From: Escherichia phage vB_EcoS-95 | Reading direction: 5' to 3' (one strand) | Sequence record: NC_048132.1 | Length of the DNA: 50,910 bases | In this document: positions 19,306 through 41,573 of the stretch, one piece after another | Numbering within the stretch: the stretch's first letter is position 1 | Layout of the letters: every line of letters begins with the position of its first letter | Position numbers and translations under genes: made by a program | Notes under the pieces: generated by a model | Told to the model about the DNA's origin: nothing | Database searches by the model: none | The model's input: only the letters and a program-made list of their open reading frames with translations

Positions 19306-19316
19306 TAGGTTTGATA

Positions 19317-22867: not shown

Positions 22868-22899
22868 GCCCTTATTGAAGCGAAACAGAGGAAAGCGCA

Positions 22900-24871: not shown

Positions 24872-24877
24872 AAATCA

Positions 24878-24899
24878 CCCGCCGCACGGCGGGTTTTTT
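24878..24899 (+). terminator. Rho-independent terminator at the end of the early region
   Basis: Hairpin CCCGCCG-CA-CGGCGGG followed by TTTTTT. Confidence 0.6.
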
Positions 24900-24912
24900 A
24901 TTGCCCGTTGTC

Positions 24913-24921
24913 TGGTATAAT
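24913..24921 (+). promoter_or_regulatory. Extended -10 promoter candidate (TGGTATAAT) for the packaging/structural operon
   Basis: TGnTATAAT match 29 bp upstream of TerS ATG; no clear -35. Confidence 0.4.
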
Positions 24922-24949
24922 CAGGCATCTAACAAAAGGAGGATTAACA

Positions 24950-25477
24950 ATGGCTAAAAATGTTGAGCCTGCTGTAAAGGCATTAAATTTCAAAGAGTTA
25001 TACAATAAAACTTATGGCGATATTGTTACGCTGAACAACCGCCACAAGTACACGCCGGAACAGGTTTTTGATATGGCGATCCGCTATTTCACGTGGGCAG
25101 AAGAGAATCACATCCAGGCGGCTGAAACTGCTTCCTTTCAGGGTGACGTGTACGAGAGCAGAGTTTACAAGCCTCGCGTTTTCACGGTAAACGGATTCAG
25201 CTTGTATCTCGGCGTGACTGAGGCTGCCGTAAGCAAATGGCGTAAAGAGCCTGGATTCTGCGATGTGATGGAGTTTGTTGATAAAGTAATTTACGAGCAA
25301 AAATTCCAGCTTGCGGCAAATAACATGATTAACGCTGGATTTATCGGTAAAGAGATCGGAGTAGAGAAGCCAGCAACAGTGAGCGTTGAAGCGAGCGCGG
25401 CAGCTAATGCAAGCATTGACGCAGTAACTGCCGATGAGGTGAAAGAGGCTGTGATTGATATTCTGGAGCAACTTTAA
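24950..25477 (+). CDS. Terminase small subunit
   Basis: Position upstream of TerL; HTH-like FTVNGFSLYLGVTEAAVSKW; start at MAKNVEP with RBS AAGGAGG. Confidence 0.6.
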   Translation: MAKNVEPAVKALNFKELYNKTYGDIVTLNNRHKYTPEQVFDMAIRYFTWAEENHIQAAETASFQGDVYESRVYKPRVFTVNGFSLYLGVTEAAVSKWRKEPGFCDVMEFVDKVIYEQKFQLAANNMINAGFIGKEIGVEKPATVSVEASAAANASIDAVTADEVKEAVIDILEQL

Positions 25478-27045
25478 TGATCATATGGGAAGATTTGACG
25501 GCGGCGCAAAAGCGAGCCATTAAAGAAATCAGTGAGCATTCATTCGAAAAGATGATCAGAATCTGGTTCCAATTATTGCAGGGGCAAAAATTCCAGAGCA
25601 ACTGGCATTTTAGCTTATTGTGCAGTGAGGTAGAGAAGATCATCAATGGAGAGTCGCAGAATGTTATTTTCAACATTACGCCAGGTAGCGGTAAGACTGA
25701 GATTTTCTCAATCCACATGTCACCCTACGCGTCATTGAAAAGCCGGAAGGTGAGAAATCTTAACCTTTCGTTTAGTGATGGACTTGTCCAGCAAAACAGC
25801 AACCGGATAAAGGAGATTATTGGTTCTCCTGAGTGGCAAGAGCTATGGCCTGGAAAACTGGCAAAGGCGAGCGCTAAAGATCTGATAGTCACCGAAGGCG
25901 GCAAGGTTAAATTGCAGGTTAACTCACGTTCTATTGGCGGCCAGGTAACAGGTTTGCGTGGCGGCTATATGGATGATGGTTTTACTGGTATGCTGGTTCT
26001 TGACGATCCAGACAAGCCGGATGATATGCTTTCTAAGGTCAAGCGTGAGGCTATCCACATGCGGCTAAAAAACACAGTGCGATCGCGTCGAATGAAAGAC
26101 ACCACGCCGATTGTTATGGTGCAACAGCGACTACACGTTAATGATTCCACCTGGTTTATGCTTAATGGCGGGATGGGTGGTATTGAGTTTAAAGTTGTGA
26201 GCATTCCGGCGCTGGTTACGAAAGAATACCGCGAAACACTTCCTGATTGGTTGAAGCCTGAATTTGATCGTGATGTTCTGTCAAGTAAGCCAGTGATGAT
26301 AGATGGCGTTGCTCATTATTCATTTTGGCCTGCGAAGGAAAGCGCGGAGGAGTTGCTTGCATTGCGCAATGCAGATCCTTACACGTTCGCCAGCCAATAC
26401 CAACAGCAACCAATCGCGCTTGGCGGCAACGTGTTTAAAACAGAGTGGTTCCAGTATTACGGCAGCGGCGAAAAATGCGCACTACCAAAACCGGATCGCT
26501 TTGAATACACATTTATTACTGGAGATACCGCGCAGAAGGCCGGAGAGCTTAACGACTATTCAGTTTTTTGTTATTGGGGGATGTATAAGAATCGCGTTTA
26601 CTTCATTGATGGCATTCGCGGAAAGTGGGAAGCGCCGGATCTTGAATTAAATTTTATTGCCTTCGTTAACCAGTGCTGGAAGCGCAATAAGGAGTGTGGC
26701 AGCTTGCGACGTATCCACATTGAGGATAAGGCCAGCGGAACTGGTTTGATTCAGGGGGCCAAAAAGAAGATCCCGATTGATATAAATCCCGTTCAGCGAA
26801 GCAACGACAAGGTAACGCGAGCAATGGACGCCGCGCCAGTGATGAGGGCCGGACGTGTGGCACTGCCAGAAAATCACCCCATGCTGCCTGAGATACTGGC
26901 AGAGGTTGCAGCATTCACTTTTGATGATTCTCATCCCCATGATGATATTGTCGATAATATAGTTGATGCTGTTAACGTAGAAATGAATTTGGCAGATGAT
27001 CCGGTAGCAAGGATGAAAAAGCTGGCAGGTCTACGCAATAAATAG
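25477..27045 (+). CDS. Terminase large subunit
   Basis: Walker A-like ITPGSGKTE, Walker B MLVLDDPD; 522 aa between TerS and portal. Confidence 0.75.
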   Translation: MIIWEDLTAAQKRAIKEISEHSFEKMIRIWFQLLQGQKFQSNWHFSLLCSEVEKIINGESQNVIFNITPGSGKTEIFSIHMSPYASLKSRKVRNLNLSFSDGLVQQNSNRIKEIIGSPEWQELWPGKLAKASAKDLIVTEGGKVKLQVNSRSIGGQVTGLRGGYMDDGFTGMLVLDDPDKPDDMLSKVKREAIHMRLKNTVRSRRMKDTTPIVMVQQRLHVNDSTWFMLNGGMGGIEFKVVSIPALVTKEYRETLPDWLKPEFDRDVLSSKPVMIDGVAHYSFWPAKESAEELLALRNADPYTFASQYQQQPIALGGNVFKTEWFQYYGSGEKCALPKPDRFEYTFITGDTAQKAGELNDYSVFCYWGMYKNRVYFIDGIRGKWEAPDLELNFIAFVNQCWKRNKECGSLRRIHIEDKASGTGLIQGAKKKIPIDINPVQRSNDKVTRAMDAAPVMRAGRVALPENHPMLPEILAEVAAFTFDDSHPHDDIVDNIVDAVNVEMNLADDPVARMKKLAGLRNK

Positions 27046-27060
27046 CACTAATTGCTAAAA
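27043..27060 (+). promoter_or_regulatory. Box variant (TAGCACTAATTGCTAAAA) overlapping TerL stop
   Basis: Sequence match to box; followed by TATATAAT and a terminator hairpin rather than the usual spacer hairpin. Confidence 0.4.
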
Positions 27061-27074
27061 AGTTATATAATCAA

Positions 27075-27100
27075 GGCTGGATTTTTCCAGCCTTTTTTAT
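27075..27100 (+). terminator. Rho-independent terminator-like hairpin between TerL and portal
   Basis: GGCTGG-ATTTTT-CCAGCC followed by TTTTTTATT. Confidence 0.5.
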
Positions 27101-27115
27101 TATGGAGATTTGACG

Positions 27116-28408
27116 ATGAGTGAAAAAACAAGGCTAGTTAAGGCCGATGGATACAACGAGATTTTCAAGGGCAGCAATGGCAATGGGCGTGTGGAGTTGC
27201 CTTTCTTTATGCAAGGGTTCGAATACACCACGCACGCTGATTTTTACATTCGCGACGGCCTAGCAAAACGAATCATCGACGTTGTTCCAGAAGAAATGGT
27301 GACGCCTGGATTTAATATTGACGGCGTGGAAGATGAGGAAAGTTTTAGATCTTTGTGGGATGAGAAGCGACTAAACGATAAAATCATTGATGCGCTTTGC
27401 TGGTCGCGTCTTTTTGGTGGCGCGGCAATTGTGGCAATCGTTCAGGATGGCAGGGCGTTAAAGTCACCTGTAGCGCCTGGTGCAATCCTTGAAGATGTTC
27501 GCGTTTACGATCGCTTTCAGGTTCGCGTAGAAAAGCGCGAAACTAATCCACGCAAGGTGCGATATGGTGAGCCATTAATTTACACCATTTCACCTGGTGC
27601 GGACTTGCCAGAATATCAGGTTCACTATTCGCGAGTCTGTATTATCGACGGTGAGCGGCTACCAAATCAGCGACGTCAGTCAAATGATGGTTGGGGTGAG
27701 TCAATCCTGAATAAGCGATTGGTTGAGGCTATTTGTGATTATAACTACTGCGAAAACTTAGCAACTCAATTGTTGCGACGTAAGCAACAGGCAGTATGGA
27801 AAGCTAAAGGACTTGCCGATCTTTGTGATGATGATGATGGTGTTAACGCCGCGCGTTTGCGCCTTGCTCAAGTTGATGATGAGGGTGGCGTAGGCCGCGC
27901 GATCGGCATTGATGCGGAAGATGAGGAATATGATGTTTTAAATTCTGATATTTCCGGCGTAGATTCATTCCTGGAAAAGAAGATGGATCGCATTGTATCT
28001 CTTTCCGGCATCCATGAAATCATCCTCAAAAACAAGAACGTTGGCGGTGTTAGCGCGAGCCAAAACACGGCGCTTGAAACCTTCTACAAGCTGATCGATC
28101 GAAAGCGAAAGGAAGAATACAAACCAATCCTTGAATTTCTGATCCCGTTCCTGATTCAAGAGGAAGAATGGAGTATTCACTTTGCGCCGTTAAGCGTTCC
28201 CAGCGAAAAGGACCAGGCCGAGATCTTGAACAAGAATATTGATTCTTTGAGCAAGGCTATTGACGGTCAATTCATGGATACAGAGGAGGCGCGCGACACA
28301 TTGCGAGCCATTGCGCCTAACGTTAAACTAAAGGACGGCAATAACATTAAATTACCTGAGCAGGACGTAGAGCCGGAGCCAGGAACAACCGAGGGTAGCA
28401 ATCAATGA
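27116..28408 (+). CDS. Portal protein
   Basis: About 430 aa directly after terminase; ATG start with RBS GGAG (track start 27110 is TTG). Confidence 0.6.
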   Translation: MSEKTRLVKADGYNEIFKGSNGNGRVELPFFMQGFEYTTHADFYIRDGLAKRIIDVVPEEMVTPGFNIDGVEDEESFRSLWDEKRLNDKIIDALCWSRLFGGAAIVAIVQDGRALKSPVAPGAILEDVRVYDRFQVRVEKRETNPRKVRYGEPLIYTISPGADLPEYQVHYSRVCIIDGERLPNQRRQSNDGWGESILNKRLVEAICDYNYCENLATQLLRRKQQAVWKAKGLADLCDDDDGVNAARLRLAQVDDEGGVGRAIGIDAEDEEYDVLNSDISGVDSFLEKKMDRIVSLSGIHEIILKNKNVGGVSASQNTALETFYKLIDRKRKEEYKPILEFLIPFLIQEEEWSIHFAPLSVPSEKDQAEILNKNIDSLSKAIDGQFMDTEEARDTLRAIAPNVKLKDGNNIKLPEQDVEPEPGTTEGSNQ

Positions 28409-29160
28409 TAGTGAAAGGCGTCGTTAAACAATGGCGCTTTCCTGAAGCAAGCGAGCGGCAATTGCGCCGCTCAATTCAGGAGGCGATAAGGGATCTTGTT
28501 GTGCTGATGCGCAGCAAAACAAAGGAAATGAAATTTGACGCGGACACCGAAGAAATCAACGCCGCAGAGGATGAGATTAGTAGCTTCGCGTTAAAGCTAA
28601 TAGCTGGCATCGCCGCATCACTTCCGGTTATCGGCCTTGCTGTTTATAAATTCAACGCAAAGCAATTTATTAACGTAGCGAAATCAACGGGAGGCAAGTC
28701 AAATTCCGCCGTTATCATCCTTATGGCTATTGGGGCCAATGCGAATGAGAGTTGGTATAGGACGCTATACGGTCAATGGCATGACATGACGATCGCATCT
28801 CTTCAAAAACTATTTGGAAACATTGTGTCTGACTGGTCAACCAATATCAGATCGGCAAACTTTCGCGGAATGAGAGATAGTCAGGTTAATGAATTGGCTG
28901 GTAAGAGGTTCGCAGTTTATAGCTCTTGGGGTAAGACCAGGGCGGAAAACATCATAGGCGCTTGGAATAGTAGACTCATGCGGCAGCGTCTGTATGATGC
29001 AAAAGTAACTCATTATTTTTGGCATGGTATGCTTGATGACAGAGAACGATTGCAGCATGTACAATGGGAGGGTAAGCGCATTGCGCTAGATTCTGAACAT
29101 GATTTTCCTGGTGAGCCTTTCGGTTGTCGTTGTTGGGCCATACCAGATTGGAACAGTTAA
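28405..29160 (+). CDS. Head morphogenesis / minor head protein
   Basis: Position after portal, overlapping start; 251 aa. Confidence 0.4.
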   Translation: MIVKGVVKQWRFPEASERQLRRSIQEAIRDLVVLMRSKTKEMKFDADTEEINAAEDEISSFALKLIAGIAASLPVIGLAVYKFNAKQFINVAKSTGGKSNSAVIILMAIGANANESWYRTLYGQWHDMTIASLQKLFGNIVSDWSTNIRSANFRGMRDSQVNELAGKRFAVYSSWGKTRAENIIGAWNSRLMRQRLYDAKVTHYFWHGMLDDRERLQHVQWEGKRIALDSEHDFPGEPFGCRCWAIPDWNS

Positions 29161-29170
29161 GAGGTGTTAA

Positions 29171-30286
29171 ATGAAGGCAAAACAAAGATTTGATAGCGCC
29201 AAAGTAAAGGCGCACTTTGATGATAACGGGTTTTTAGTTGATCGCCCTATCGTGGCGCGAATTGGTTTACAAGTCTATCAGACTCCTTTCGGTGAGCGCA
29301 GAGAATTTCGTCCTGCGTCCGAAGTATTCAAGGCCGACTCACTCGCCACCTTCGCAGGGAAGCCAGTCACGGTTGGTCACGTTACGGTAACTCCAGAAAA
29401 CGCCGAAAAGGTTGTGGTTGGTTCTTGTGCTGGTGCTGGTGTGCCGAACGGGATCGGCGTAGAGGTTCCGTTAAGCATTTACTCAAAACGAGCAATCGAA
29501 AGCGCGAAGAAGCGAGACACGGCGGAGATTTCAGTTGGTTATACATCGGTTGATATTGATAAACCAGGCTGGGGCAATAATAAAACTGGTGAGTACGTTT
29601 TCGATGAGGATGTTAGCGAAGACTGGAAACCTGATTCTCCTGATTGGGTTAAGTTTGATGCAATCCAGACTGAAATCAAGGTAAACCACATCGCGTTAGT
29701 TTTCCGAGGTCGAGCTGGCATTGCAAAATTAAACCTTGATAGCCAGCAAGATTTTCCGTATAGTGACGATGTTATTAACAACAAAGAGGATCAAATCATG
29801 ACTGTAAAAATTAAACTGGATGGCGCTGTAGAGTTTGACGTGCCAAAAGCAGTTGCGGATCACATTGAATCACTGAAAGCTGATGCCAAAGCACAGAAAG
29901 AAAAGGCGGACGGCCTGGAAGCTGAGCGAGATGCACTGCAAACCAAAGTAGATGGCATTCAGGATCAGATTGATGCCGCAGTCAAGAAAGCCAAAGAAGA
30001 TGCCGCGCAACATGCTCAATTAGTAGCAGACGCTAAAGAGTTAGGCATCAAGTGCGACGGCCTGGATGCGAAAGCAATCAAGGTTGCATACATCAAAGAA
30101 GTTATGGGCAATGACGTTTCCGATAAAACTGATGCCTATATCGAAACAGCTTTCGACATCGCCAAAAACTCTGATAAAATGGCGGCACAGCGTAAGAGCA
30201 TTAAAGGTGACTCTTTCGCTAATGAAAAACAGGATGACGCAGGTTCTAAGCTGAATCCTAACGCTCGTTTTGAGAAACTGAAATAA
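29171..30286 (+). CDS. Putative scaffolding / prohead core protein
   Basis: Position between portal and capsid genes; coiled-coil-like charged region (KADGLEAERDALQTKVDGIQDQIDAAVKKAKEDAAQHA). Confidence 0.35.
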   Translation: MKAKQRFDSAKVKAHFDDNGFLVDRPIVARIGLQVYQTPFGERREFRPASEVFKADSLATFAGKPVTVGHVTVTPENAEKVVVGSCAGAGVPNGIGVEVPLSIYSKRAIESAKKRDTAEISVGYTSVDIDKPGWGNNKTGEYVFDEDVSEDWKPDSPDWVKFDAIQTEIKVNHIALVFRGRAGIAKLNLDSQQDFPYSDDVINNKEDQIMTVKIKLDGAVEFDVPKAVADHIESLKADAKAQKEKADGLEAERDALQTKVDGIQDQIDAAVKKAKEDAAQHAQLVADAKELGIKCDGLDAKAIKVAYIKEVMGNDVSDKTDAYIETAFDIAKNSDKMAAQRKSIKGDSFANEKQDDAGSKLNPNARFEKLK

Positions 30287-30298
30287 GGAGTAATTAAA

Positions 30299-30778
30299 AT
30301 GGCTAAAATTGGAGCAAGTTATTTTGACACTATGGCGATCGCACTACCTGGCATGGTTGCCGACACTTCTAAATACAACATTGACGGCGCTTGCGTCGTT
30401 AGTGAAGGTGGGGAAATTCTTGTTGGTACTGCCGTGCAGGTTGTCGCAGTGCAAGCGGTTGAAGGTCATAAACTTATTAAGCGCATGGAAGCAGAAAAAT
30501 ATCCTTACGGTGTGGCAATTCGCTCTCACTGGCAAACTGTTAACTCTCAAGGACAGATGGTTTATGAAGAAGGAAGCGCAATCAACGTAATGACATCTGG
30601 AAGAGTTTGGATTCGTTCAAAGTCCAGCGCAGCACCAGTCTTCGGCACTGCCGTTAAACTTGATGTTGATGGTCATGAAAAATCAGACGGCGCAATCACT
30701 ACTAACTGGACATACGCTGGCGGATTTGTCAAATATAAAGATATTAATCTTGTAGAAGTTCAGTTGCAGCAACTGTAA
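30299..30778 (+). CDS. Capsid decoration-like protein (paralog A)
   Basis: Shares N-terminal domain with 30839-31852 (YNIDGACV...GRVW...AGGFVK...EVQ). Confidence 0.4.
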   Translation: MAKIGASYFDTMAIALPGMVADTSKYNIDGACVVSEGGEILVGTAVQVVAVQAVEGHKLIKRMEAEKYPYGVAIRSHWQTVNSQGQMVYEEGSAINVMTSGRVWIRSKSSAAPVFGTAVKLDVDGHEKSDGAITTNWTYAGGFVKYKDINLVEVQLQQL

Positions 30779-30794
30779 TTAGAGTTTAATATTG

Positions 30795-30824
30795 GGACCA
30801 TCCAAAAGGATGGTCCTTTTTTTT
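30795..30824 (+). terminator. Rho-independent terminator
   Basis: GGACCATCC-AAAA-GGATGGTCC followed by T8. Confidence 0.6.
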
Positions 30825-30838
30825 ATGGAGAAATTATT

Positions 30839-31852
30839 ATGGCTTATGAAAATTTAATGATGCACTATGCATGTCCTGGCAATCTCTCTGATACTTCAAC
30901 ATATAACATTGATGGCGCTTGTGTTGCTCAAGGTGATATTAAGTTTGGATCAGCGGTTCGGGTTGTCGGAATAGTGGATGGAATGAGGGTTGTGACGGCG
31001 CTTTCTGATGGTGAAACTCCTTACGGCATCGCTTTTCGTTCCCAATATGAGCACCTGAGCGGTAAAATTCTCGACGGAGAGGTGTGTAACGTCGTTTCTC
31101 ACGGTCGGGTGTGGGCGCTTACTTCTCTTAGTGAAGCCCCGAAATCATTCTCAAAACTAAGAATCGGTGTTGGAGGAGTAGTAACTGGCGTAGATGATTA
31201 TGTTGGTTGGACCTTTGCTGGTGGCTTTGTTAAGCACGAAGACGGTCACATTATTGAGGTTCAGGTGAAGCAAAATGCTCTAATCGTTCCACCCCCTCCG
31301 CCTCCTGTGGTGCTGGTAGAGTCTGCAACAATTAACACTGACAAGGAGAGTCCGCAGCCAAACAATGCTCCTGTAAAATGCAGTATCACAGTAGAGCCTG
31401 GCAACGCCACCGATAAAACTGGTGTTTGGTCTGTTGATGCTGTAAACATTGCGACTATTGATGCCGATACAGGTATTCTAACTCCTGTTGGTAGTGATGC
31501 ATTCGGTAGTGTAAACGTAAATTGGACTGCTAACGATGGAAGCAAGACTAAGGCCACGATTGTTTATCAATTCGAAAAAGCTGTTGTTAGCGTCGCTAGT
31601 GCAACCGTAAGCCTTGAGAAAAATTCTGCAATTGTTGGTGAAGCCGTTCAGGCGAGCGTTGTCGTTGCTCCAGAAGGTGCTACAAATAAATCCGGTTCTT
31701 GGTCTTTGTCAAGTGGTGATTTTGCATCTGTAGATCCTGGTACTGGACTAGTAACTACTATCGCCGCTGGCGAGGTTGATGTTATCTGGACCGCTGCTGA
31801 TGGTTCTGGCGTTAAAGGTCAGCAAAGACTAACCATCACCGATCCTGAATAA
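30839..31852 (+). CDS. Capsid decoration-like protein (paralog B) with Pro linker and two Ig-like (Big_2-type) domains
   Basis: N-terminal paralogy to 30299-30778; PPPPPPVV linker; two repeats of Ig-like pattern (ATID..TG.LT..G.......V.WTA.DGS). Confidence 0.45.
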   Translation: MAYENLMMHYACPGNLSDTSTYNIDGACVAQGDIKFGSAVRVVGIVDGMRVVTALSDGETPYGIAFRSQYEHLSGKILDGEVCNVVSHGRVWALTSLSEAPKSFSKLRIGVGGVVTGVDDYVGWTFAGGFVKHEDGHIIEVQVKQNALIVPPPPPPVVLVESATINTDKESPQPNNAPVKCSITVEPGNATDKTGVWSVDAVNIATIDADTGILTPVGSDAFGSVNVNWTANDGSKTKATIVYQFEKAVVSVASATVSLEKNSAIVGEAVQASVVVAPEGATNKSGSWSLSSGDFASVDPGTGLVTTIAAGEVDVIWTAADGSGVKGQQRLTITDPE

Positions 31853-31869
31853 CATAAAAACGCTTTGAC

Positions 31870-31892
31870 GCTTTAACAAAAAGTGCTATCAT
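31870..31892 (+). promoter_or_regulatory. Reverse-orientation box giving an extended -10 (TGCTATCAT) with upstream TTGACG, ahead of the major capsid gene
   Basis: TTGACG-16 bp-TATCAT with TG at -15/-14; sequence is the reverse complement of the early box. Confidence 0.45.
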
Positions 31893-31933
31893 CTAGGCCG
31901 TTACATTTAACGGCCTTTTATGGAGGAAACAAA

Positions 31934-32905
31934 ATGGCTAAAAAATATGATGAATTAGATGCTACTATTGTAGCAAATCATTTGCAGATTCAGGGTGTTA
32001 AGTCCGACGCTTCTGATATGGGTATTTGGACCGCTCAAGAGCTACACAAGATCCGCTCTAACGCATACGAGAAAGAGTATCCGGCAGGTTCCGCGCTTCG
32101 CGTATTCCCTGTAACAAACGAGCTTTCTGATACTGACAAGACTTTCGAATATCAGACTTTTGATAAGGTTGGCTACGCGAAAATTATCGCCGACTACACC
32201 GATGATCTGCCGACTGTGGACGCGTTGATGACTTCTGAGTTTGGCAAAGTGTTCCGCCTGGGTAACGCTTATCTGATCTCCATTGATGAGATTAAAGCAG
32301 GTCAGCGAACTGGCAAGAGCCTGTCAACTCGCAAGGCTAACGCTGCGCAAAATGCACATGATCAGTTGATTAACTTCCTGGTGTTCAAGGGTTCCAAGCC
32401 TCACAAGATCGTTTCCGTTTTCGATCATCCTAACCTTACGAAAATTGTTTCTAAAGGCTGGATGAGCAAGGATGGAAACACCAAGTTCCCTGATGTGGCA
32501 AGCGATGAACTGGAGGCTGCAATCGAGACTATCGAGGAAGTAACTAAAGGTCAGCACCGCGCGACTAACATCCTGATCCCGCCGTCCATGCGCAAAGTCC
32601 TGACGGTTCGAATGGAAAATACCACTGAAAGTTATCTGGAATACTTCCAGAAGCAAAACGGCGGTATCACTATCGACTCTATCGCAGAGCTTGAGGATAT
32701 TGACGGCAAAGGTACGAAAGGTTGCTTGGTTTACGAAAAAGATCCAATGAACATGAGCATTGAGATTCCAGAAGCGTTTAACATGCTTCCGGCGCAGCCA
32801 AAAGACCTTCACTTCAAGGTTCCTTGCACTTCCAAGTGTACTGGCCTTACGATTTACCGTCCGTTTACGATGGTGCTTATTACTGGCTTGAAAAAGGCTG
32901 TGTAA
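31934..32905 (+). CDS. Major capsid protein
   Basis: 323-aa ORF in capsid position with strong RBS GGAGGAAACAAAATG; followed by a strong terminator. Confidence 0.6.
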   Translation: MAKKYDELDATIVANHLQIQGVKSDASDMGIWTAQELHKIRSNAYEKEYPAGSALRVFPVTNELSDTDKTFEYQTFDKVGYAKIIADYTDDLPTVDALMTSEFGKVFRLGNAYLISIDEIKAGQRTGKSLSTRKANAAQNAHDQLINFLVFKGSKPHKIVSVFDHPNLTKIVSKGWMSKDGNTKFPDVASDELEAAIETIEEVTKGQHRATNILIPPSMRKVLTVRMENTTESYLEYFQKQNGGITIDSIAELEDIDGKGTKGCLVYEKDPMNMSIEIPEAFNMLPAQPKDLHFKVPCTSKCTGLTIYRPFTMVLITGLKKAV

Positions 32906-32916
32906 TTAGATAACAT

Positions 32917-32947
32917 GGGGAGCCTTAATGGTTCCCCTTTTTTTATT
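32917..32947 (+). terminator. Rho-independent terminator after the major capsid gene
   Basis: GGGGA..TCCCC hairpin followed by T-run. Confidence 0.55.
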
Positions 32948-32962
32948 TATGGAGCACACAAA

Positions 32963-33229: not shown

Positions 33230-33275
33230 TAATTGGGGCGCTTATGCGCCCCTTGTCACATCTGGAGAAAACAAA

Positions 33276-34499: not shown

Positions 34500-34890
34500 T
34501 TTAATGTTGGCGGCAAGAAAGGCGCTGGCGGCTGAATATGAATCACGATTTAAGATAGCCTATGAAAACGTTGATTTTGTGCCGCCTGGAGATGGTTCTA
34601 TGTGGTTAAAATTTAACTACATGGAAGCGGACACGGATCGCATATCTCTTGATAGAAAATGTGTTTCTTACATCGGTTTGGTTCAGGTTGGAATTGTCAT
34701 TCCTCCTGGCGGTGGCACTGATAAAGCGCGTTTGCTGGCTAAAGAGATTGCGAGATTTTTCTATGATGGTAGAATGTTTGAAACTGGCTATATTAGCGAG
34801 GGAGCAAACGTCCACGCATTACTAAAAAGTGAAACAGGTTGGTTCTTGCCGATCCGTTTCAGTGTTAGGCTTGATACAAAGGAGGAATAA
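34489..34890 (+). CDS. Putative tail terminator protein
   Basis: Position immediately upstream of major tail gene; 133 aa. Confidence 0.3.
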   Translation: MHYDLMLAARKALAAEYESRFKIAYENVDFVPPGDGSMWLKFNYMEADTDRISLDRKCVSYIGLVQVGIVIPPGGGTDKARLLAKEIARFFYDGRMFETGYISEGANVHALLKSETGWFLPIRFSVRLDTKEE

Positions 34891-34892
34891 TC

Positions 34893-35555
34893 ATGCACTT
34901 GCCTAATGGTTCTCAAATTTTCATCGGCGTTAATATGGGTGATCCAATTCAAGCTACTGATATTTCAAACGCTAAAGATCCGGTTTTTACTGTTAGTAAT
35001 TCACAGCAGGTCAAAAAAGGTGCTTATGTTCTGATTGAAACGTCTTCCTGGGGTAAACTGGTTAGTCGTGTGTTGCGGGTAAAAGAAGTATCTGATAACG
35101 CAAGCGTAACTCTTGAAGGTGTAGACACAACCGATCAAAACGTATTTCCGGCTGGTTCTAATGCAGCAACTTTCCGAGAGGTGAAATCTTGGGTAGAGGT
35201 TCCTTGCGTACAGGATCTTGCGCAGGACGGCGGCGAGCAACAGTATTACACTTATCAGTGTTTGGCTGATGACCAGGAGCAGCAGTTACCGACTTACAAG
35301 AGCGCAGTTTCTCTTACCTACACTTTCGCGCATGAATATGATAACCCGATTTATCCGATCTTGCGCAAGGCTGAGGAATCCGGCGACGTAACCGCTTTGC
35401 GTATGTACGTTCCGAAAGCTAAAGAGATGCGTTGCTGGGCTGGCGTATTGTCTTTTAATGACATTCCGCAAACCACTATGAACGAAATGGAAACTGTTTC
35501 CCTTTCCGTATCTCTGAAAGGTCGATTTACGTTCTTACCTTCCGACGTTAAGTAA
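34893..35555 (+). CDS. Major tail protein
   Basis: 220-aa ORF upstream of the G/GT chaperone and tape measure (lambda V position); RBS AGGAGG. Confidence 0.5.
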   Translation: MHLPNGSQIFIGVNMGDPIQATDISNAKDPVFTVSNSQQVKKGAYVLIETSSWGKLVSRVLRVKEVSDNASVTLEGVDTTDQNVFPAGSNAATFREVKSWVEVPCVQDLAQDGGEQQYYTYQCLADDQEQQLPTYKSAVSLTYTFAHEYDNPIYPILRKAEESGDVTALRMYVPKAKEMRCWAGVLSFNDIPQTTMNEMETVSLSVSLKGRFTFLPSDVK

Positions 35556-35560
35556 AACAA

Positions 35561-35581
35561 GGGGCGTTGCGCCCCTTTTTT
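35561..35581 (+). terminator. Rho-independent terminator after the major tail gene
   Basis: GGGGC-GTTGC-GCCCC followed by TTTTTT. Confidence 0.6.
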
Positions 35582-35620
35582 CATTCCTGTAAAATCAATC
35601 TATCAAATAAATCAATTCCA

Positions 35621-35639
35621 CTTTTAACAAAAAGTGCTA
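35621..35639 (+). promoter_or_regulatory. Reverse-orientation box giving TGCTATAAG extended -10-like element directly abutting the RBS of the tail chaperone gene
   Basis: Reverse complement of the box; AAGGAG RBS starts 1 nt after the box. Confidence 0.45.
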
Positions 35640-35654
35640 TAAGGAGATCTTGAG

Positions 35655-35972
35655 ATGGCAAAGATGAAACTAACGTTAGGCCCACTGCCTGATTTTAAGC
35701 TGCCTGTTTCTTTCGTGCTTCCAAATGGTGATGAGCAAGTTATTGTTTTTACCGTGCGCCACAAGAAGGCAAGCGAGATTCACGAACGATACACGGCAGA
35801 AAAGCCGATGAGTGACGTAGAAATGATCACCTTCCTTGCTTCCGGTTGGGATCTGGAAGATGAATTTAACGAGGAAAACGTTGCTAAATTGCTGGATTAT
35901 TACCCTTCTGCGTCATTATCGCTGACTGGTCATTATATGAAAGCACTTGCGGGGCAGCGGGTAAAAAACTAA
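35655..35972 (+). CDS. Tail assembly chaperone (lambda gpG analogue)
   Basis: 105-aa ORF between major tail and tape measure; ends in slippery heptamer. Confidence 0.65.
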   Translation: MAKMKLTLGPLPDFKLPVSFVLPNGDEQVIVFTVRHKKASEIHERYTAEKPMSDVEMITFLASGWDLEDEFNEENVAKLLDYYPSASLSLTGHYMKALAGQRVKN

Positions 35973-36289
35973 AGCGGGCGGTTTACCTGTTTTACCTCAA
36001 GCCGCCAACTGACGCACAATTAGAGGCCGTCGGCCTATCCCGTTCAGACTACGAAGGGGAGGAGCCGCCGGAGGTAATTTTTGATGAATCAATGTTTCAA
36101 TCTTGGGATCTGTTTTGCGCCATGCAGACGCAATGGAGATCGACTAGCGGCAGCGTGTATGGGTTCGACTATAACGTTTTGCCCATGCTTTTTGACATTT
36201 ACAAGATTGATGATCGTGAGATGGCGCTAAATGATTTGCGCATCATGGAACAAAAGGCGCTAGAAATGATTCATTCAAACAAAACATAA
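35655..36289 (+). CDS. Tail assembly chaperone frameshift fusion (lambda gpGT analogue)
   Basis: -1 frame after 35969 reads KKLKRAVYLFYLKPPTDAQLEAVGLSRSDYEGEEPPEVIFDESMFQSWDLFCAMQTQWRS... without stops to 36289. Confidence 0.55.
35963..35969 (+). other. Programmed -1 ribosomal frameshift slippery heptamer A_AAA_AAC
   Basis: Canonical XXXYYYZ heptamer 1 codon before the G stop; -1 frame is open from here through ORF 36092-36289. Confidence 0.65.
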
Positions 36290-36310
36290 GCGCCGCGAGG
36301 CGCTTTTTTA
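36290..36310 (+). terminator. Rho-independent terminator-like hairpin before the tape measure gene
   Basis: GCGCC-GCGA-GGCGC followed by TTTTTT. Confidence 0.5.
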
Positions 36311-36328
36311 ATATCTGGAGGTTTTAAA

Positions 36329-39010
36329 ATGGCTGAAAAATACGCTGGCCTAACGCTAGGCGTTGACGTGTCGCAGGTCAACAATGCTGTTAAATCATTG
36401 CAGCAATTCAAGAAGGCAAACGACGACGCAAAAAAAAGCGTTAATGAATTTGTTGATTCTGAGGTTGTGGCCCGACAGCAAGCAAAACAGCTTGCCGAAG
36501 AACTGGCGCGCCAGAAAGCAGAATTTAAGAAAATCCAGGAGTCAATTGATCCCACCGCATCAAAGATGGATAAGCTGAGAAAGGCAGCGACACAGCTTGA
36601 TGCGCTATGGAAAAAGGGCGTTGTTCCTGATCAGACTTTTTTTGAGCTTGGGGCAATTCTTGAGATGCAGCAAAACAAGCTGATCGCAACAAAAAAAGCG
36701 ATGACAGAGGAAGGCCGCGCGGCGCTTGAGGAATCAAAGAACAAGGCGCGAGCAGCGGAAGAGGCTAAAAAATTCGTCCAGGCTTTGCGTGAGCAGGAAG
36801 AAGCAGCAGGAAAAAGCAAGTCTGAATTGCTGGAAATGAAAGCGGCACAGCTTGGAGTTAGCCAGGAGGCAGCACCTTACATCGCAAGACTGAAAGAGCA
36901 GGAAAAGCAGATCCAAAAACTTGGGATTTCTACAGGCCAATACAAACAAGCAATGCAGCAATTGCCAATGCAGATCACAGACGTGGTGACTTCACTTGCT
37001 TCTGGTATGCCCGTTTGGTTGGTCGCAGTCCAGCAGGGTGGACAGATCAAGGATTCTTTTGGTGGTGCATCCAATGCTTTAAAAGCGTTGCTATCTTTCC
37101 TGAATCCGGTAAACGTGGCGTTTGGTTTGCTTTCCGGCACGCTGGCAATTGCTGCATATAATGCCCACAAAGCACAGACAGAGCTTGAGGCAATTAAAAA
37201 AACCGTTCAGGAAACAACTGGCTTGAGTGGTGAGTTTGCCGAAAAGATTGCTATAGGAATCCAGGAGCTTTCCGACAAGACAGGCGAAAGCGCCGAAGAT
37301 CTGGCAAAGGCTTACATAACAACGAAAGACGGCGCGAGCGAGGCGATTAAAAAACTGGTTGACGTTGGAATGACTTATGATGACGCAAAAAAGAAAGTCA
37401 ACGAGTACAAGGGCGCGTCTAGCTTTGTCAGCTTGAATAACGAAATTGCAAACCACAAAAACAAAGTCCTTGAGTTGGGCGAGTCGTGGTATGAAGTTTT
37501 GAAAGCTAAGCGTGATTACGCTTCCCCGTCCGGCGGCCTGTTAGGTAAAGAGCTTGGCTATGTTAATCCTATGCTTAAGTTTGCACTTAACACTTATGAA
37601 GACATTGGAAAGGTCGTAAAAGATGCGAATAAGGACATGGCGGAGCGAGCGGAGCGAATCGACAAAGAAAACCTGTCATTAAACAGAGTGAGAGCGGCGC
37701 AAGAGGCTTTAAACAAAGCCATTGAGGATCAGAAGGGCGTGGCGCGTTCGGCTGATGAAGAACTGAAAAAGCGCGCGGCTGAAAACGTGGAGTTCAGACG
37801 CAAAGAGCTTGAGGAGATCAAGAAGCAGGAGCAGAAAAAGAAAGAGGCTAAAGGGGGAATAGTTCGCGGCCCTACTGAGCAGCTTGATAAAGAGTTGTAC
37901 GTTTTAAAAGCGCAACTGGAAACTCTTAAAGAGCATCGCACTGTTAACGATGTTATTTCTCGCCAGCGTAAATCTTTATGGAGCATCGAAAAGCAGATCG
38001 AGATCCTGGAGAATGCGCAGAGCAAGCGTAAATTGACCGGAGCGGAACAGGCGCTACTAAACGAGCAAAAAGCCGTTCTTGAAAGGGCAAGACAAAAAGC
38101 GGAGCTAGGGGATCAGATTGTTTTGCAGGAGCGCAAAAACAAGCTGGAGCAAGATAGTCTTAAGTTTATCCGTGAAACGGAGGCGGCTATTGATGCGATT
38201 GGCCTTAAGCAACTTGGATACACTGAAAAGCAGATCGAGCGTGAGCTAGAGTTACGCAAGCTGCGCACCGACTACGAGGCGCAAGGCGGAAGCGTTAGCG
38301 ACGAAGTTTTTCAGCAAATGGAGACGAAACTTAAGCTGTATTACCAGGCACAAGACGAGGCGCAAGGCAACTGGTTAGCCGGAGCAAAGAACGCATGGGA
38401 GCTATTCGCGGAAGATGCAAACAATGCCTATGGCAATGTTCAGCAGATTGCAAGCGAGGCGTTAAACGGCCTTACAAACCAATTAGCGAATTTTATCGCT
38501 ACTGGCAAGGCAAACTTTAAAGACTTCTCGACTGCTATCATCAAAATGATTATTCAGATGATCACGAAAATGGTTGTCTTTAATGCGTTATCTGGCCTGA
38601 TGGGTGGTCAAACCTGGACGATGGGGAGCTTGCTTAAGAATATTGGCGGATTTGCTGGCGGTGGATACACTGGCGACGGCGGGAAGTATGAGCCAGCCGG
38701 AATTGTTCATAAGGGTGAATTTGTCATGACGAAGGAGGCAACGCAGCGTATCGGAGTAGGCAACTTGTACCGCATGATGCGAGGCTATGCTAACGGCGGC
38801 GTTGTTGGTGGTTCCGGCTATACTGGCGGTGGCACTGTCACTGGTGGAGCACCTCAATTTAACATCGGTGGGATTGATGTTAGCATCAATAACGGCAATG
38901 ATCCGAAGGGTATCGAAACTGGTGTTAAGATGATCTTTACTGATATGATTAGACGTTCCTGTATGCAGGGCGGGGAGGTTTACGAATTTGTTATGAGCAA
39001 GCGAGGTTGA
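36329..39010 (+). CDS. Tail tape measure protein
   Basis: 893 aa, coiled-coil-rich, Gly-rich C-terminal region; position after G/GT. Confidence 0.8.
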   Translation: MAEKYAGLTLGVDVSQVNNAVKSLQQFKKANDDAKKSVNEFVDSEVVARQQAKQLAEELARQKAEFKKIQESIDPTASKMDKLRKAATQLDALWKKGVVPDQTFFELGAILEMQQNKLIATKKAMTEEGRAALEESKNKARAAEEAKKFVQALREQEEAAGKSKSELLEMKAAQLGVSQEAAPYIARLKEQEKQIQKLGISTGQYKQAMQQLPMQITDVVTSLASGMPVWLVAVQQGGQIKDSFGGASNALKALLSFLNPVNVAFGLLSGTLAIAAYNAHKAQTELEAIKKTVQETTGLSGEFAEKIAIGIQELSDKTGESAEDLAKAYITTKDGASEAIKKLVDVGMTYDDAKKKVNEYKGASSFVSLNNEIANHKNKVLELGESWYEVLKAKRDYASPSGGLLGKELGYVNPMLKFALNTYEDIGKVVKDANKDMAERAERIDKENLSLNRVRAAQEALNKAIEDQKGVARSADEELKKRAAENVEFRRKELEEIKKQEQKKKEAKGGIVRGPTEQLDKELYVLKAQLETLKEHRTVNDVISRQRKSLWSIEKQIEILENAQSKRKLTGAEQALLNEQKAVLERARQKAELGDQIVLQERKNKLEQDSLKFIRETEAAIDAIGLKQLGYTEKQIERELELRKLRTDYEAQGGSVSDEVFQQMETKLKLYYQAQDEAQGNWLAGAKNAWELFAEDANNAYGNVQQIASEALNGLTNQLANFIATGKANFKDFSTAIIKMIIQMITKMVVFNALSGLMGGQTWTMGSLLKNIGGFAGGGYTGDGGKYEPAGIVHKGEFVMTKEATQRIGVGNLYRMMRGYANGGVVGGSGYTGGGTVTGGAPQFNIGGIDVSINNGNDPKGIETGVKMIFTDMIRRSCMQGGEVYEFVMSKRG

Positions 39011-39363
39011 TAATGAAGCTGGATCAGTTTAAGTGGTGTACGCAGGTTCAGAACGGCGGCGGGGCAATGACGTCATCGAATAACGATCGAGAGATTGCAT
39101 TCGGTAACGGATACACACAGGTAGCATCTGGAGGTTTTAACACAATCCGGCGAGAGTTTAGCATTGTTTACGCTGGGCTTGATTACAGAGATGTTGTCAA
39201 GTTCCTGAATGAGCACAGGCTAAAGCCTTTCTTGTGGATCATGCCTGATGGAAGCCCTGGATTGTTCAGGGTGAAAAGCGGCAGCGTCGGCCTTACTCCA
39301 CTGTCGCCAACCGTTCAGGAAGTAAAAGCCACTTTTACGGAGCAATTTACATCAATGCAATAA
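39007..39363 (+). CDS. Minor tail protein (lambda gpM analogue)
   Basis: 118 aa immediately after tape measure with ATGA overlap. Confidence 0.55.
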   Translation: MIMKLDQFKWCTQVQNGGGAMTSSNNDREIAFGNGYTQVASGGFNTIRREFSIVYAGLDYRDVVKFLNEHRLKPFLWIMPDGSPGLFRVKSGSVGLTPLSPTVQEVKATFTEQFTSMQ

Positions 39364-39368
39364 TTTAA

Positions 39369-39392
39369 AGCCGCCTTTGTGCGGCTTTTTTC
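39369..39392 (+). terminator. Rho-independent terminator followed by TGTTACAAT extended -10-like element
   Basis: AGCCGC-CTTTGT-GCGGCT followed by TTTTTT; TGTTACAAT about 5 bp downstream. Confidence 0.5.
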
Positions 39393-39425
39393 TTGATGTT
39401 ACAATGAGCAAAAAGGAGGTAGAAA

Positions 39426-40187
39426 ATGGCTAATAAAGAATCAGGTAGAGTTGAATTTGAGAACTGCCTACAAAGTTTATACCCAGGCGAAATTATAACG
39501 CTCGTAGAGATTGATGGGACGAAGTTCGGAGCAAATATTTACCGATTTCACAATGAGAACATCTCTTATACTGCCGAAGAATTAATGCAAGCGCAGCAAA
39601 CCGGAATCTTGCCGCCGAAAGATATTATTTTTCAGGGTGAGGTTTACGGAGCGCGGCCTTTCGGTGTGAGCGGGATTAACTTCACAAGTAACGGCAGGGC
39701 AGATAAGCCTCAACTTATAGTGTCAAACCTTGACAGCAGGGTTAGCGCCATGATCAGAAATTACAATGGCATGATGCAAGCAAAGGTGACTTTCTGGATT
39801 ACGGCAAAGGAATTTATAGGAGAAGGCGGAGCAATCAAAGATGGCGCTTACAGAAAATTGGTTTATTACATTGAGCGCCCAAGCCAGTATAATAGAGAGG
39901 TGGCGAAATTTGATCTGACGTCGCCTTACGATATGGATGGATTGATGATCCCGCCGCGCATCACTCAAAGCGTTTGCTATTGGGCGCAAAGGGGGTGGTA
40001 CAGGAGCGGAAAGGGTTGCTCTTATAACGGATCGGCAATGTTCGATAAAGACAATAAGCCAGTAACAGAACCATCACAAGACTATTGCGCAGGAACTGTA
40101 ACGGCTTGCAAATTGAGATTCGGTCAGCAAAACGAGTTGGATTTCGGCGGTTGCGCGGTGGCGTCACTGCTACGGAGGAATCAATAA
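39426..40187 (+). CDS. Minor tail protein (lambda gpL analogue)
   Basis: 253 aa; C-terminal Cys cluster (CYWAQRGWYRSGKGCSYNG...C..C) as in gpL; gene order M-L-K-I-J. Confidence 0.6.
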   Translation: MANKESGRVEFENCLQSLYPGEIITLVEIDGTKFGANIYRFHNENISYTAEELMQAQQTGILPPKDIIFQGEVYGARPFGVSGINFTSNGRADKPQLIVSNLDSRVSAMIRNYNGMMQAKVTFWITAKEFIGEGGAIKDGAYRKLVYYIERPSQYNREVAKFDLTSPYDMDGLMIPPRITQSVCYWAQRGWYRSGKGCSYNGSAMFDKDNKPVTEPSQDYCAGTVTACKLRFGQQNELDFGGCAVASLLRRNQ

Positions 40188-40918
40188 TGATTAGTGCAAA
40201 AATTAAACTTGAAATAATGCAGCACGTTAAAGAGGAATACCCTAAAGAGGCTTGCGGTGTCATAACTCAAAAGTCACGGGTACAGAAATATCACCGCATA
40301 ACCAACGTGCATGACGATCCAGAAAATCATTTTGAAATGGACGCCGTAGAATACGCTGAATCGCTCGACAAAGGCGAATTAATCGCGGTGGTGCATTCCC
40401 ATTGCGGGGATGGTGCTAGTACGATACCGAGCGCGCACGACTCATGTATGTGCGATGAAATGGGTGTATCGTGGATTATAGTTTCATGGCCCGAAGGTGA
40501 TATGAGAATTGTCGAGCCGCAGGAGAGGCCGCTTATCGGTCGCCCGTGGTCGCTGGGGTCGTTCGATTGCTGGGGTCTTATCATGGCGTGGCATAAACAG
40601 CACGGAGTAGTATTGAATGACTTCCGAAAGCCTTACGAGTGGTGGAAGTCAGAATATGGTGAAAATCTTTACCAGGATAATTATTTGAAAGAGGGATTTG
40701 TTGAAACTAACGAGCCTCCAAAACCTGGTGATATGGTGATTATGCAGCTATCATCGCCAGTCTGGAATCATGCTGGGATTTATTTGGGTAACAATCAGCT
40801 ATTACATCATGCGTTTGGAAAGCTATCTCGCATTGACTTGTATTCTGGATGGTATCAGGAGCACACTGTAAAAATTTGCCGACATAAGGATCTGAAATAT
40901 GACATTGAAAGTAATTAA
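40187..40918 (+). CDS. Tail assembly protein (lambda gpK analogue; JAMM/MPN + NlpC/P60)
   Basis: JAMM-like HSHCGDGASTIPSAHD and NlpC/P60-like CWGLIM...H motifs; start at ATG overlapping gpL stop. Confidence 0.65.
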   Translation: MISAKIKLEIMQHVKEEYPKEACGVITQKSRVQKYHRITNVHDDPENHFEMDAVEYAESLDKGELIAVVHSHCGDGASTIPSAHDSCMCDEMGVSWIIVSWPEGDMRIVEPQERPLIGRPWSLGSFDCWGLIMAWHKQHGVVLNDFRKPYEWWKSEYGENLYQDNYLKEGFVETNEPPKPGDMVIMQLSSPVWNHAGIYLGNNQLLHHAFGKLSRIDLYSGWYQEHTVKICRHKDLKYDIESN

Positions 40919-41495
40919 GCTATCTGGTTCCCTGGGGCGTAGATTTGGCGTCTTTCACAAAATGGCGGTTGACTCATACCCCGAAGCAATACGCGCGTTA
41001 TCTTCCCAAGTTGAAGGGTTCAAGGACTACATGCAAAGCGAAGTAGGATCGCGAATGAAGTATGCTGTATTCGTTGATGGAAAAAACGTTGGTCAGCATG
41101 ATGAAAAATCATGGAAGTGCGCGCGAGAGGTTCGAATAGTTCCTGTTCCAACTGGTTCTAAGTCCGGCGGCCTGTTCAATGTTGTTTTTGGTGCTGTAAT
41201 TATGGCTACTGCTTTCATTACTGGCGGTGCAAGCCTGGCGGCTATGGGCGCTTTTGCATCTTCCGCATTTATGATGGGTGGTGCTATCGCGCTTGGCGGT
41301 GTCATGCAAATGATCTCGCCGCAGCAGGGTGGAATGAAACTGCAAAGCCAATCAGCAGAAAACAAGCCTTCTTACGCTTTCGGCGGCGCAGTAAATACCA
41401 CGGCGGCAGGTTATCCGGTTCCTTTGCCATATGGATATAGGACAGTAGGCGGCGCGATCTGGTCGGCTGGCAGCTACGCAGAAGATAAAGCATAA
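40899..41495 (+). CDS. Tail assembly protein (lambda gpI analogue)
   Basis: 198 aa between K and J analogues; Gly/Ala-rich hydrophobic C-terminal half. Confidence 0.5.
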   Translation: MTLKVIKLSGSLGRRFGVFHKMAVDSYPEAIRALSSQVEGFKDYMQSEVGSRMKYAVFVDGKNVGQHDEKSWKCAREVRIVPVPTGSKSGGLFNVVFGAVIMATAFITGGASLAAMGAFASSAFMMGGAIALGGVMQMISPQQGGMKLQSQSAENKPSYAFGGAVNTTAAGYPVPLPYGYRTVGGAIWSAGSYAEDKA

Positions 41496-41502
41496 AAAAA
41501 TA

Positions 41503-41525
41503 CCCGCCTTGCGCGGGTTTTTTTG
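41503..41525 (+). terminator. Rho-independent terminator before the J-like gene
   Basis: CCCGC-CTTGC-GCGGG followed by T8; TATAAT at about 41532. Confidence 0.55.
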
Positions 41526-41573
41526 TGCCTTTATAATGTGCAAACCAAGAAACAGCACAAAAGGTTAAAAGTC

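Follow-up and report, generated by a model that had tools for sequence, protein, structure and literature searches.

How are the late genes of a T1-like bacteriophage, which follow one another along a single strand, divided into units of transcription? The question is raised by the 50,910-nucleotide (nt) genome of Escherichia phage vB_EcoS-95 (NC_048132.1), referred to in full as the window, in which the late structural genes are punctuated by hairpins resembling Rho-independent terminators. An earlier sequence-only reading had proposed eight such terminators in this region, several of them paired with an extended -10-like element, and had suggested modular late transcription in which re-initiation or attenuation sets protein ratios. 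The analysis described here favours, with reasonable rather than full confidence, a revised form of this picture, in which genuine Rho-independent terminators split the late region into approximately ten co-directional units read by host RNA polymerase, seven of them with their own sigma-70-type promoter. Termination, promoter activity, read-through and the effect on protein ratios are deduced throughout from sequence features, from their excess over chance and from the conservation of their positions.

The region from 24000 to 42000 is that of a T1-like coliphage along its full length and matches 560 phage records, the closest being those of Escherichia phages Kalemo and vB_EcoS_swan01 (97-98% identity; Drexlerviridae, Tempevirinae, Warwickvirus), with protein identity to T1 of 35-78% over the late region. 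With gene names transferred from the swan01 annotation, the late genes, all on the + strand, run in the order TerS, TerL, portal, head morphogenesis protein, protease, gp27, gp26 and MCP (major capsid protein), followed by five connector/neck proteins (gp24 to gp20) and MTP (major tail protein), and then by two tail-chaperone open reading frames (ORFs; tfmA and tfmB), TMP (tape-measure protein) and tail M, L, K, I and J. The products of gp27, gp26 and MCP are homologues of T1 gp49, gp48 and gp47, which annotation notes describe as abundant T1 capsid proteins.

Terminators at the late gene boundaries

All eight of the proposed terminators are present, within 1-2 nt of the positions first given, on the + strand and in intergenic DNA. 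Each consists of a GC-rich stem of 6-10 bp followed by 6-8 T and lies just 3' of a stop codon. Three further structures had been omitted, namely the terminator at 45155-45175 and two hairpins, of which that at 31895-31916 has a short U-tract and that at 33235-33252 none. Together with these three, the eight have hairpin minimum free energies (MFE) of -11.8 to -18.1 kcal/mol and z scores of -2.6 to -5.5 relative to shuffled sequences. A U-tract (at least 5 T in 8) follows the stems at 24877, 27073, 30794, 32917, 35559, 36288, 39367, 41502 and 45155; it is marginal at 31895 (TTTA) and absent at 33235 (TTGTCACA). When a strong terminator is defined by a folding free energy (dG) of -9 kcal/mol or below and at least 5 T in 8, the + strand between 24600 and 45300 holds nine, against 0.82 +/- 0.95 (maximum 4) in 100 dinucleotide shuffles of the same interval. 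Moreover, all nine fall in the intergenic DNA that makes up 4.7% of it, and chance is thereby excluded.

The first of the series, before TerS (24877-24899; ACCCGCCGCACGGCGGGT then T5; MFE -14.4, z -3.1), has an annotated orthologue in T1, and a hairpin followed by a T-run was seen by eye upstream of TerS in 58 distinct relatives. The terminator between TerL and the portal gene (27073-27100; MFE -16.8, z -5.5) had been singled out as notable. It is indeed present, but it was already annotated in T1 and, as T30, in phage TLS. The terminator after gp27 (30794-30825; MFE -18.1) is followed directly by the ribosome-binding site of gp26, and 31 distinct hairpins are found at this junction among relatives. 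The hairpin before MCP (31895-31919; AGGCCGTTA/TAACGGCCT, with the short U-tract; MFE -14.3, z -5.2) corresponds to T35 of TLS and has stems that differ among lineages. After MCP itself stands the terminator at 32917-32944, again represented by 31 distinct hairpins, with unrelated stems. The hairpin between gp24 and gp23 (33235-33252; MFE -16.8), which lacks a U-tract, is orthologous to a terminator of T1 (16445-16470 in that genome) and of TLS. The terminator after MTP (35559-35581) is symmetric and scores as terminator-like on the - strand too, and that after tfmA/tfmB (36288-36309) overlaps the stop codon on one side and adjoins the ribosome-binding site of TMP on the other. The remaining three follow TMP and tail M (39367-39391), tail L, K and I (41502-41524) and, at the end of the late region, tail J (45155-45175; MFE -15.6), the last also annotated in T1.

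Conservation of these structures was assessed in 91 related loci (11 annotated phage records and 80 from IMG/VR), in which the late genes were placed by tblastn and the 100 nt 3' of each stop codon were inspected, shares being counted over distinct junction sequences. The share with a terminator directly after the gene is 0.68 for TerL, 0.75 for gp27, 0.69 for gp26, 0.88 for MCP, 0.61 for gp24, 0.96 for MTP, 0.83 for tfmB, 0.72 for tail M, 0.86 for tail I and 0.52 for tail J. For ten control genes (TerS, portal, head morphogenesis, protease, gp23, gp22, gp20, tfmA, TMP and tail L) it is 0.00-0.02, and for the remaining two, gp21 and tail K, it is 0.09 and 0.06. Between 5 and 31 distinct hairpin sequences occur at each terminator-positive junction, and hairpins without a U-tract are rare at these ten.

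Turnover of the stems is most evident after MCP, where lineages carry the unrelated sequences GGGGAGCC, GGGAACCG, AGGCACTTAC, GCCTCTC, GCCCCTAA, GCACCC, GCCCTC and GCGCC, and where compensatory pairs can be recognized (GCCCCTAA/TTAGGGGC versus GCCCCTGA/TCAGGGGC). Structure and position are thus kept as the stem sequence changes, which points to selection on the presence of a hairpin plus U-tract at the boundary and not on its sequence. RNAalifold found no consensus structure in a MAFFT alignment of 23 distinct MCP-gp24 sequences, since the stems there have been replaced rather than mutated and are not alignable; per-sequence folding and positional statistics were used at this junction in place of alignment folding. 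At the tfmB-TMP junction the paired share of cells is 90%, compared with 28-67% for slid controls; covariation, however, is weak, the observed value being reached by 30 of 500 shuffles. No Rfam family matches anywhere in the window. Overall, the conservation pattern is what working terminators would show and so supports termination at these sites.

The hairpins also bear on gene starts. For gp23 the ATG at 33276, with GGAG 8 nt upstream, is likelier than that at 33213, which puts the 33235-33252 hairpin inside the ORF; for gp24, similarly, 32963 is likelier than 32915, where the Kalemo record begins the gene so that its ORF takes in the MCP terminator. The gp23 and gp24 starts in related records are probably wrong. 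A separate perfect hairpin without a U-tract, GAGCGGCAATTGCGCCGCTC, is found at 28453-28472 inside the head-morphogenesis coding sequence (CDS), approximately 45 nt past the portal stop codon. Its position is kept in 89% of distinct relatives, with paired variants GAGCGCGC..TCGCGCTC and GAGCGGGA..TCCCGCTC.

Candidate late promoters and a proposed division into units

The proposal that each terminator is followed by an extended -10 element could be upheld for only four of the eight, which have a conserved -10 after them (at 24913, 35588, 39397 and 41532). At 27075, 30795, 32917 and 36290 the U-tract instead runs directly into GGAG or the ribosome-binding site and the start codon, leaving no room for a promoter. 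Of the elements named earlier, TGGTATAAT at 24913, TGTTACAAT at 39397 and TATAAT at 41532 are present, 9-22 nt past the terminator stem. The element TGCTATCAT at 31884 is also present and is a true extended -10, but it lies approximately 1 kb from the nearest upstream terminator (30794) and precedes a hairpin rather than following a terminator. The fifth, TGCTATAAG, begins at 35635 and not at 35636, has a hexamer (TATAAG) without the final T, and runs into a Shine-Dalgarno sequence 14 nt before the ATG; it is not a -10 for tfmA. Thus the modular picture stands as regards modules bounded by terminators, at ten junctions, and conserved -10 elements after four of them, whereas the pairing of terminator with promoter was wrong for half and two of the five elements had been misread.

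Within this genome TGnTAnnnT is not enriched: 33 copies occur on the + strand of the region, three of them intergenic against 1.6 expected, and three of the five copies of TATAAT are intergenic. Support for the -10 elements therefore comes only from their conservation in relatives. A TG at -15/-14 together with a hexamer having A2 and T6 is found at 24913, 31884, 34767 and 39397, and fails at 35635 (TATAAG), at 41532 (no TG) and at 35588 (TG at -14/-13).

On this basis seven units have a conserved candidate promoter and the units of gp26, gp24 to gp20 and TMP-tail M have none. TerS and TerL form a unit read from P_TerS, a canonical extended -10 (TGGTATAAT, 24913-24921), and closed by the terminator at 27073. 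An element of the type TGnTAnAAT/TAnACT lies approximately 20 nt past the hairpin in essentially all 58 distinct TerS-upstream sequences (by eye), and after the small ORF that precedes TerS a -10 hexamer is found at +20 to +22 in 10 of 14. The unit from portal to gp27, closed at 30794, is served by the candidate P_portal, a TATAAT (27066-27071) one base 5' of the TerL-portal hairpin which the earlier reading did not list; a hexamer matching at least 5/6 ends 1 nt short of the stem in 32 of 41 distinct relatives, including those whose flanking sequence has diverged. Next comes gp26, for which no promoter was recognized and which is closed by the hairpin at 31895. The MCP unit, closed at 32917, has a near-consensus sigma-70 promoter, P_MCP (31865-31892; TTGACG, 16-nt spacer, TGcTATCAT, a proper extended -10), visible in most lineages sampled; the hairpin at 31895 begins 2 nt 3' of its -10. 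No promoter was recognized for gp24, closed by the hairpin at 33235, or for gp23 to gp20, which have no closing terminator or hairpin.

The MTP unit, closed at 35559, is preceded by P_MTP (34748-34775; TTGCGA, 16-nt spacer, TGgTAGAAT), which lies inside the gp20 CDS approximately 120 nt before the MTP ATG and was likewise absent from the earlier reading. A promoter-like site occupies this position in 53-63 of 80 distinct relatives, and the codon over the middle of the -10 varies (Lys/Arg/Thr/Ile) as TGGTAnAAT is kept in the DNA, which argues for constraint on DNA rather than on protein. For tfmA/tfmB, closed at 36288, the real -10-like element is P_tfmA (35588-35595; conserved TGTAAAAT), whose hexamer starts 12 nt past the stem, and at this junction a hexamer of at least 5/6 is found at +9 or +11 in 37 of 72 distinct relatives. 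The TMP-tail M unit has no recognized promoter and is closed at 39367. Tail L, K and I, closed at 41502, follow P_tailL, a canonical extended -10 (TGTTACAAT, 39397-39405) with counterparts at +10 to +12 in 28 of 47 distinct relatives. Finally, tail J, closed at 45155, follows P_tailJ (41532-41537), a TATAAT that is not extended and has TTGCGC in the terminator loop 17 nt upstream; a -10 hexamer lies at +10 to +13 in 57 of 58 distinct relatives. A 22-nt segment with the tail L promoter -10 is duplicated in tandem in phage DanielBernoulli (13921-14011; TTATTGTGTCTATAATGGTGCT, twice), 3' of the tail M terminator.

In the model that we favour, host RNA polymerase would start at several late promoters, each in fixed register with a hairpin or a gene. 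High-output units would end at strong terminators, past which some of the polymerases would continue into the low-output ones. Since gp26, gp24 to gp20 and TMP-tail M have no recognizable promoter, they would be expressed only by partial read-through of the preceding terminator, and such promoterless blocks accord with connector and tape-measure proteins being present in few copies. Terminators stand directly after genes for abundant proteins (gp27, gp26, MCP and MTP), where they would uncouple high-output from low-output genes downstream and would give the messenger RNAs of abundant proteins a stable 3' hairpin. Re-initiation at some boundaries and attenuation at others, as first suggested, would be consistent with all of these findings. 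The annotations of T1, TLS and Rtp name no RNA polymerase, sigma factor or antiterminator, and the host apparatus was expected to be used in TLS (PMC11447400).

Several points weigh against this model. The terminators look canonical and strong, and read-through may be too low for gp26, a difficulty because gp26 is homologous to an abundant T1 protein. A number of the candidate promoters have no convincing -35, or only a non-canonical TG at -14/-13, and the P_MTP site lies within the gp20 CDS, so that its conservation is partly confounded. With stricter criteria, the authors of the TLS study accepted only three sigma-70 promoters in the whole genome (PMC11447400). For T1-like or other Drexlerviridae phages, a literature search yielded no transcriptome, Term-seq or start-site study.

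The main rival, which we consider unlikely, is that a phage factor makes the polymerase resistant to termination and the late genes are carried on one or a few long RNAs. The hairpins would then act after transcription, either by modulating translation downstream or as 3' barriers that, once the RNA is processed, stabilise the segments for abundant proteins. Such a scheme would account for the hairpins that sit right after the genes of abundant proteins, and for the four terminators directly adjoining a ribosome-binding site, where read-through is obligatory. It would, however, leave unnecessary the conserved -10 elements held in fixed register at seven boundaries, and the conserved U-tracts are needed for termination and not for a stability hairpin; nor do the annotations of T1, TLS or Rtp include a gene resembling N, Q or another antiterminator.

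It is also conceivable, if improbable, that the terminators stop nearly everything and that gp26, gp24 to gp20 and TMP-tail M possess promoters which consensus rules have missed. The transcripton model of T1, in the outline available, has promoters internal to its modules, and A/T-rich -10-like hexamers matching 4/6 are found beside many hairpins, among them TAATAT at 30788 and TAACAT at 32911, the latter with TTGAAA 17 nt upstream. A relaxed 4/6 rule, however, gives matches at all junctions, even promoterless ones, because TAA stop codons and A/T-rich spacers generate them, and was set aside as uninformative. A candidate of another kind, a promoter inside tfmB upstream of TMP, is visible in 53 of 73 distinct relatives but was likewise rejected for the window. 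In the window and its closest relatives its -10 has been removed by synonymous codons, TAC AAG ATT replacing TAT AAA ATA, which counts against complete insulation of TMP-tail M by a missed promoter.

Far less probable than either, the hairpins might be features of the DNA itself, such as boundaries of recombination modules or landing sites of homing endonucleases, for HNH endonuclease genes and extra ORFs have been inserted exactly at these junctions (tail I-J in Kalemo, several sites in Rtp and ACG-M12), but insertions are expected wherever DNA is non-coding, the hairpins directly follow stop codons with a T-run on the coding strand past the stem wherever a junction scores as a terminator, and the free turnover of stems with retention of hairpin and U-tract is the signature of an RNA-level terminator. 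The HNH inserts lie at 18995-19611 in Kalemo and at 6388-6864 and 21464-21979 in Rtp, exactly at terminator-bearing junctions. That of Kalemo carries its own direct repeat, hairpin and TACAAT, the tail I-J terminator and promoter coming after the insert.

A direct repeat and candidate promoters set against hairpins

A 19-nt direct repeat (DR; ATAGCACTTTTTGTTAAAA, also written ATAGCACnnnTTGnTAAAA) is present in the window in 20 good copies between 320 and 46417, and 22 matches with at most 3 mismatches to aaATAGCACnnnTTGnTAAAA are found against 2.7 expected. Examples lie at 4370, 5440, 16880, 17343, 18561, 20027, 21530 and 22824 and, on the - strand, at 8681, 11517, 13716 and 15526. The same consensus, aaATAGCACnnnTTGnTAAAA, describes the 21-nt direct repeats DR1-DR18 of TLS, among which the inverted DR7, upstream of the capsid gene, and DR8, upstream of the tail-tip gene, match the copies at 31871 and 41552 of the window. 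For the repeats of TLS, T1 and Rtp the function was left open between stoperator, enhancer and UP element (PMC11447400), and this was the only paper which a literature search for the DR sequence recovered.

A -10-like hexamer lies exactly 19 nt past the DR at 15 of 20 copies in the window, 14 of 21 in T1, 15 of 19 in TLS and 14 of 19 in Rtp, and a sequence resembling CATCGAAAC follows approximately 6 nt past the -10 in many of them. The TTGnTA within the DR was considered as a -35 and rejected, since the spacer to the -10 would be 22 nt; at that distance an activator seems to be needed. We hypothesise that the DR is the upstream half of a phage-specific promoter class, placed at about -50 to -32, with no -35 at the normal distance. 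In 46 of 62 DR promoters from the four genomes a GC-rich hairpin fills the 19-nt spacer or straddles the -10, which then lies in the loop. The mean dG is -10.1, against -4.3 for shuffles, and these hairpins are without a U-tract; spacer examples in the window are 4389-4408, 5459-5478, 11498-11517, 16899-16918, 20055-20078 and 22850-22873.

Most DR copies elsewhere in the window point in the direction of transcription, whereas those at 31871 and 35622 are inverted relative to the genes. Read on the + strand, the ATAGCA ends of these inverted copies (31871-31889 and 35622-35640) are TGCTATCAT and TGCTATAAG, the elements which had been noted in the earlier reading. The first of them supplies the spacer and -10 of P_MCP, and among relatives an inverted DR forms the unusually conserved spacer of this promoter in 53 of 79 distinct sequences. 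The second, with TAGATT 19 nt away (35597-35602 on the + strand), makes up a candidate DR-type promoter on the - strand (35597-35640), and each of the 36 inverted DRs found at the MTP-tfmA junction in relatives is followed on the - strand, at exactly 19 nt, by a -10-like hexamer. Such an antisense promoter would stand back-to-back with P_tfmA and point into the symmetric MTP terminator.

Forward copies are also found near late promoters. One without mismatches (ATAGCACTAATTGCTAAAA, 27042-27060, + strand) lies between the TerL stop codon and the terminator, and a DR is present upstream of the portal gene in 19 of 65 distinct relatives. Another, degenerate with 3 mismatches (ACAGCACAAAAGGTTAAAA, 41552-41570, + strand; DR8 of TLS), holds the ribosome-binding site of tail J and ends 3 nt before its ATG; a forward DR ends 4 nt from this ATG in 39 of 73 distinct relatives. 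A DR also overlaps the P_TerS -10 in the T1 lineage. At late promoters the DR would, on our hypothesis, occupy the place of a repressor site, across the spacer and -10 of P_MCP and over the leader of tail J.

A candidate for the DR-binding factor is a 158-aa protein encoded at 1393-1869 (- strand), which gives sub-threshold matches to Cro/YdaS-like helix-turn-helix families of Pfam and has a DR promoter adjoining it at 1881. Lying beside the helicase gene, it appears to correspond by position to the 'transcriptional regulator' of T1, TLS and Rtp, and to be the homologue of T1 gp23. A regulator of this kind may activate approximately 15 middle promoters, at which the -10 lies exactly 19 nt past the DR, and repress the late promoters which the DR overlaps or, at P_tfmA, adjoins as a back-to-back antisense promoter.

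At P_portal and P_MCP the -10 lies 1-2 nt before a hairpin, such that the predicted start, 6-8 nt past the -10, falls inside the 5' arm. The predicted read-through RNA at P_portal folds at -16.5 kcal/mol and the promoter-initiated RNA at -3 to -6; at P_MCP the corresponding values are -13.5 and -0.7 to -5 kcal/mol. In the promoter-initiated RNA the leftover stem is no longer flush with the U-tract. Because a start inside the 5' arm weakens the fold, the hairpin could stop incoming transcription and yet spare the transcripts of the promoter itself. A literature search for precedents of overlapping terminators and promoters returned nothing useful. Taken jointly, these two linked readings, the DR as the site of a regulator with dual effect and the -10 before a hairpin as a built-in insulator, are put forward tentatively, as a possibility that we would not at present call likely.

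Precedents and implications

The terminator map and its interpretation are a re-discovery, the terminators having been described already for T1 and TLS and the interpretation for T1. The T1 RefSeq record (NC_005833) annotates a 'rho-independent transcriptional termination site' at every orthologous junction, namely before TerS, between TerL and portal, and after gp49, gp47 (major head), gp46, gp41 (major tail), gp39, gp37, gp34 and gp33. In the model proposed for T1, a 'transcripton' is a module with a terminator on either side and RpoD-type promoters within it (Roberts, Martin and Kropinski 2004, summarised in PMC11447400). T1 shares with the window its gene order, its terminators at the same junctions and, as that summary gives it, the proposed transcripton logic; it belongs, however, to a different subfamily, and the gp24-gp23 hairpin has lost its U-tract in the window. 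The same set of terminators is listed for TLS as T28-T50 in Table S1 of German et al. 2024 (PMC11447400), some being near-identical in sequence to their orthologues here: T30 reads ggctggaatattccggcc and its counterpart in the window GGCTGGATTTTTCCAGCC, and a close match is likewise seen for T46 and T49. Its authors were unable to claim transcriptons for TLS (PMC11447400). Papers on other T1-like genomes report 18-21 terminators per genome.

Two observations stand apart from the late units themselves. A perfect consensus sigma-70 promoter (TTGACA, 16-nt spacer, TATAAT) is found at 16100-16127, where the leftward and rightward early blocks diverge, and is probably an immediate-early promoter. 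Matches to this Escherichia T1-like late region also include 21 records labelled 'Campylobacter phage', among them A143, whose capsid protein is 89% identical to that of the window; the 21 are probably mislabelled or contaminant phages.

Parallels can also be drawn with better-studied coliphages. In T4 and T7, intrinsic terminators between co-directional genes, with promoters just downstream, tune relative expression. These terminator-promoter pairs resemble those of the window, but T4 and T7 use a phage sigma factor or polymerase for late transcription and T1-like phages encode neither. The late operon of lambda is read from one late promoter, with Q-dependent antitermination through terminators, and its protein ratios are set mainly by translation. 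Lambda and the window have in common a long co-directional head and tail block in the same functional order. In the annotation of T1, TLS and Rtp, by contrast, no Q-like gene is named, and several conserved internal candidate promoters are present in the window.

The terminator map itself thus adds nothing new. The logic of the DR and the promoter-in-terminator geometry go beyond published descriptions, and further value lies in a family-wide table of boundaries with or without a promoter, in the overlaps between DR and late promoters, and in corrected gene starts for related records. T1-like phages encode no RNA polymerase, no sigma factor and no known antiterminator, and what is at stake is the timing and balancing of late expression in a family common among therapeutic and industrial-contaminant coliphages and among Klebsiella phages.

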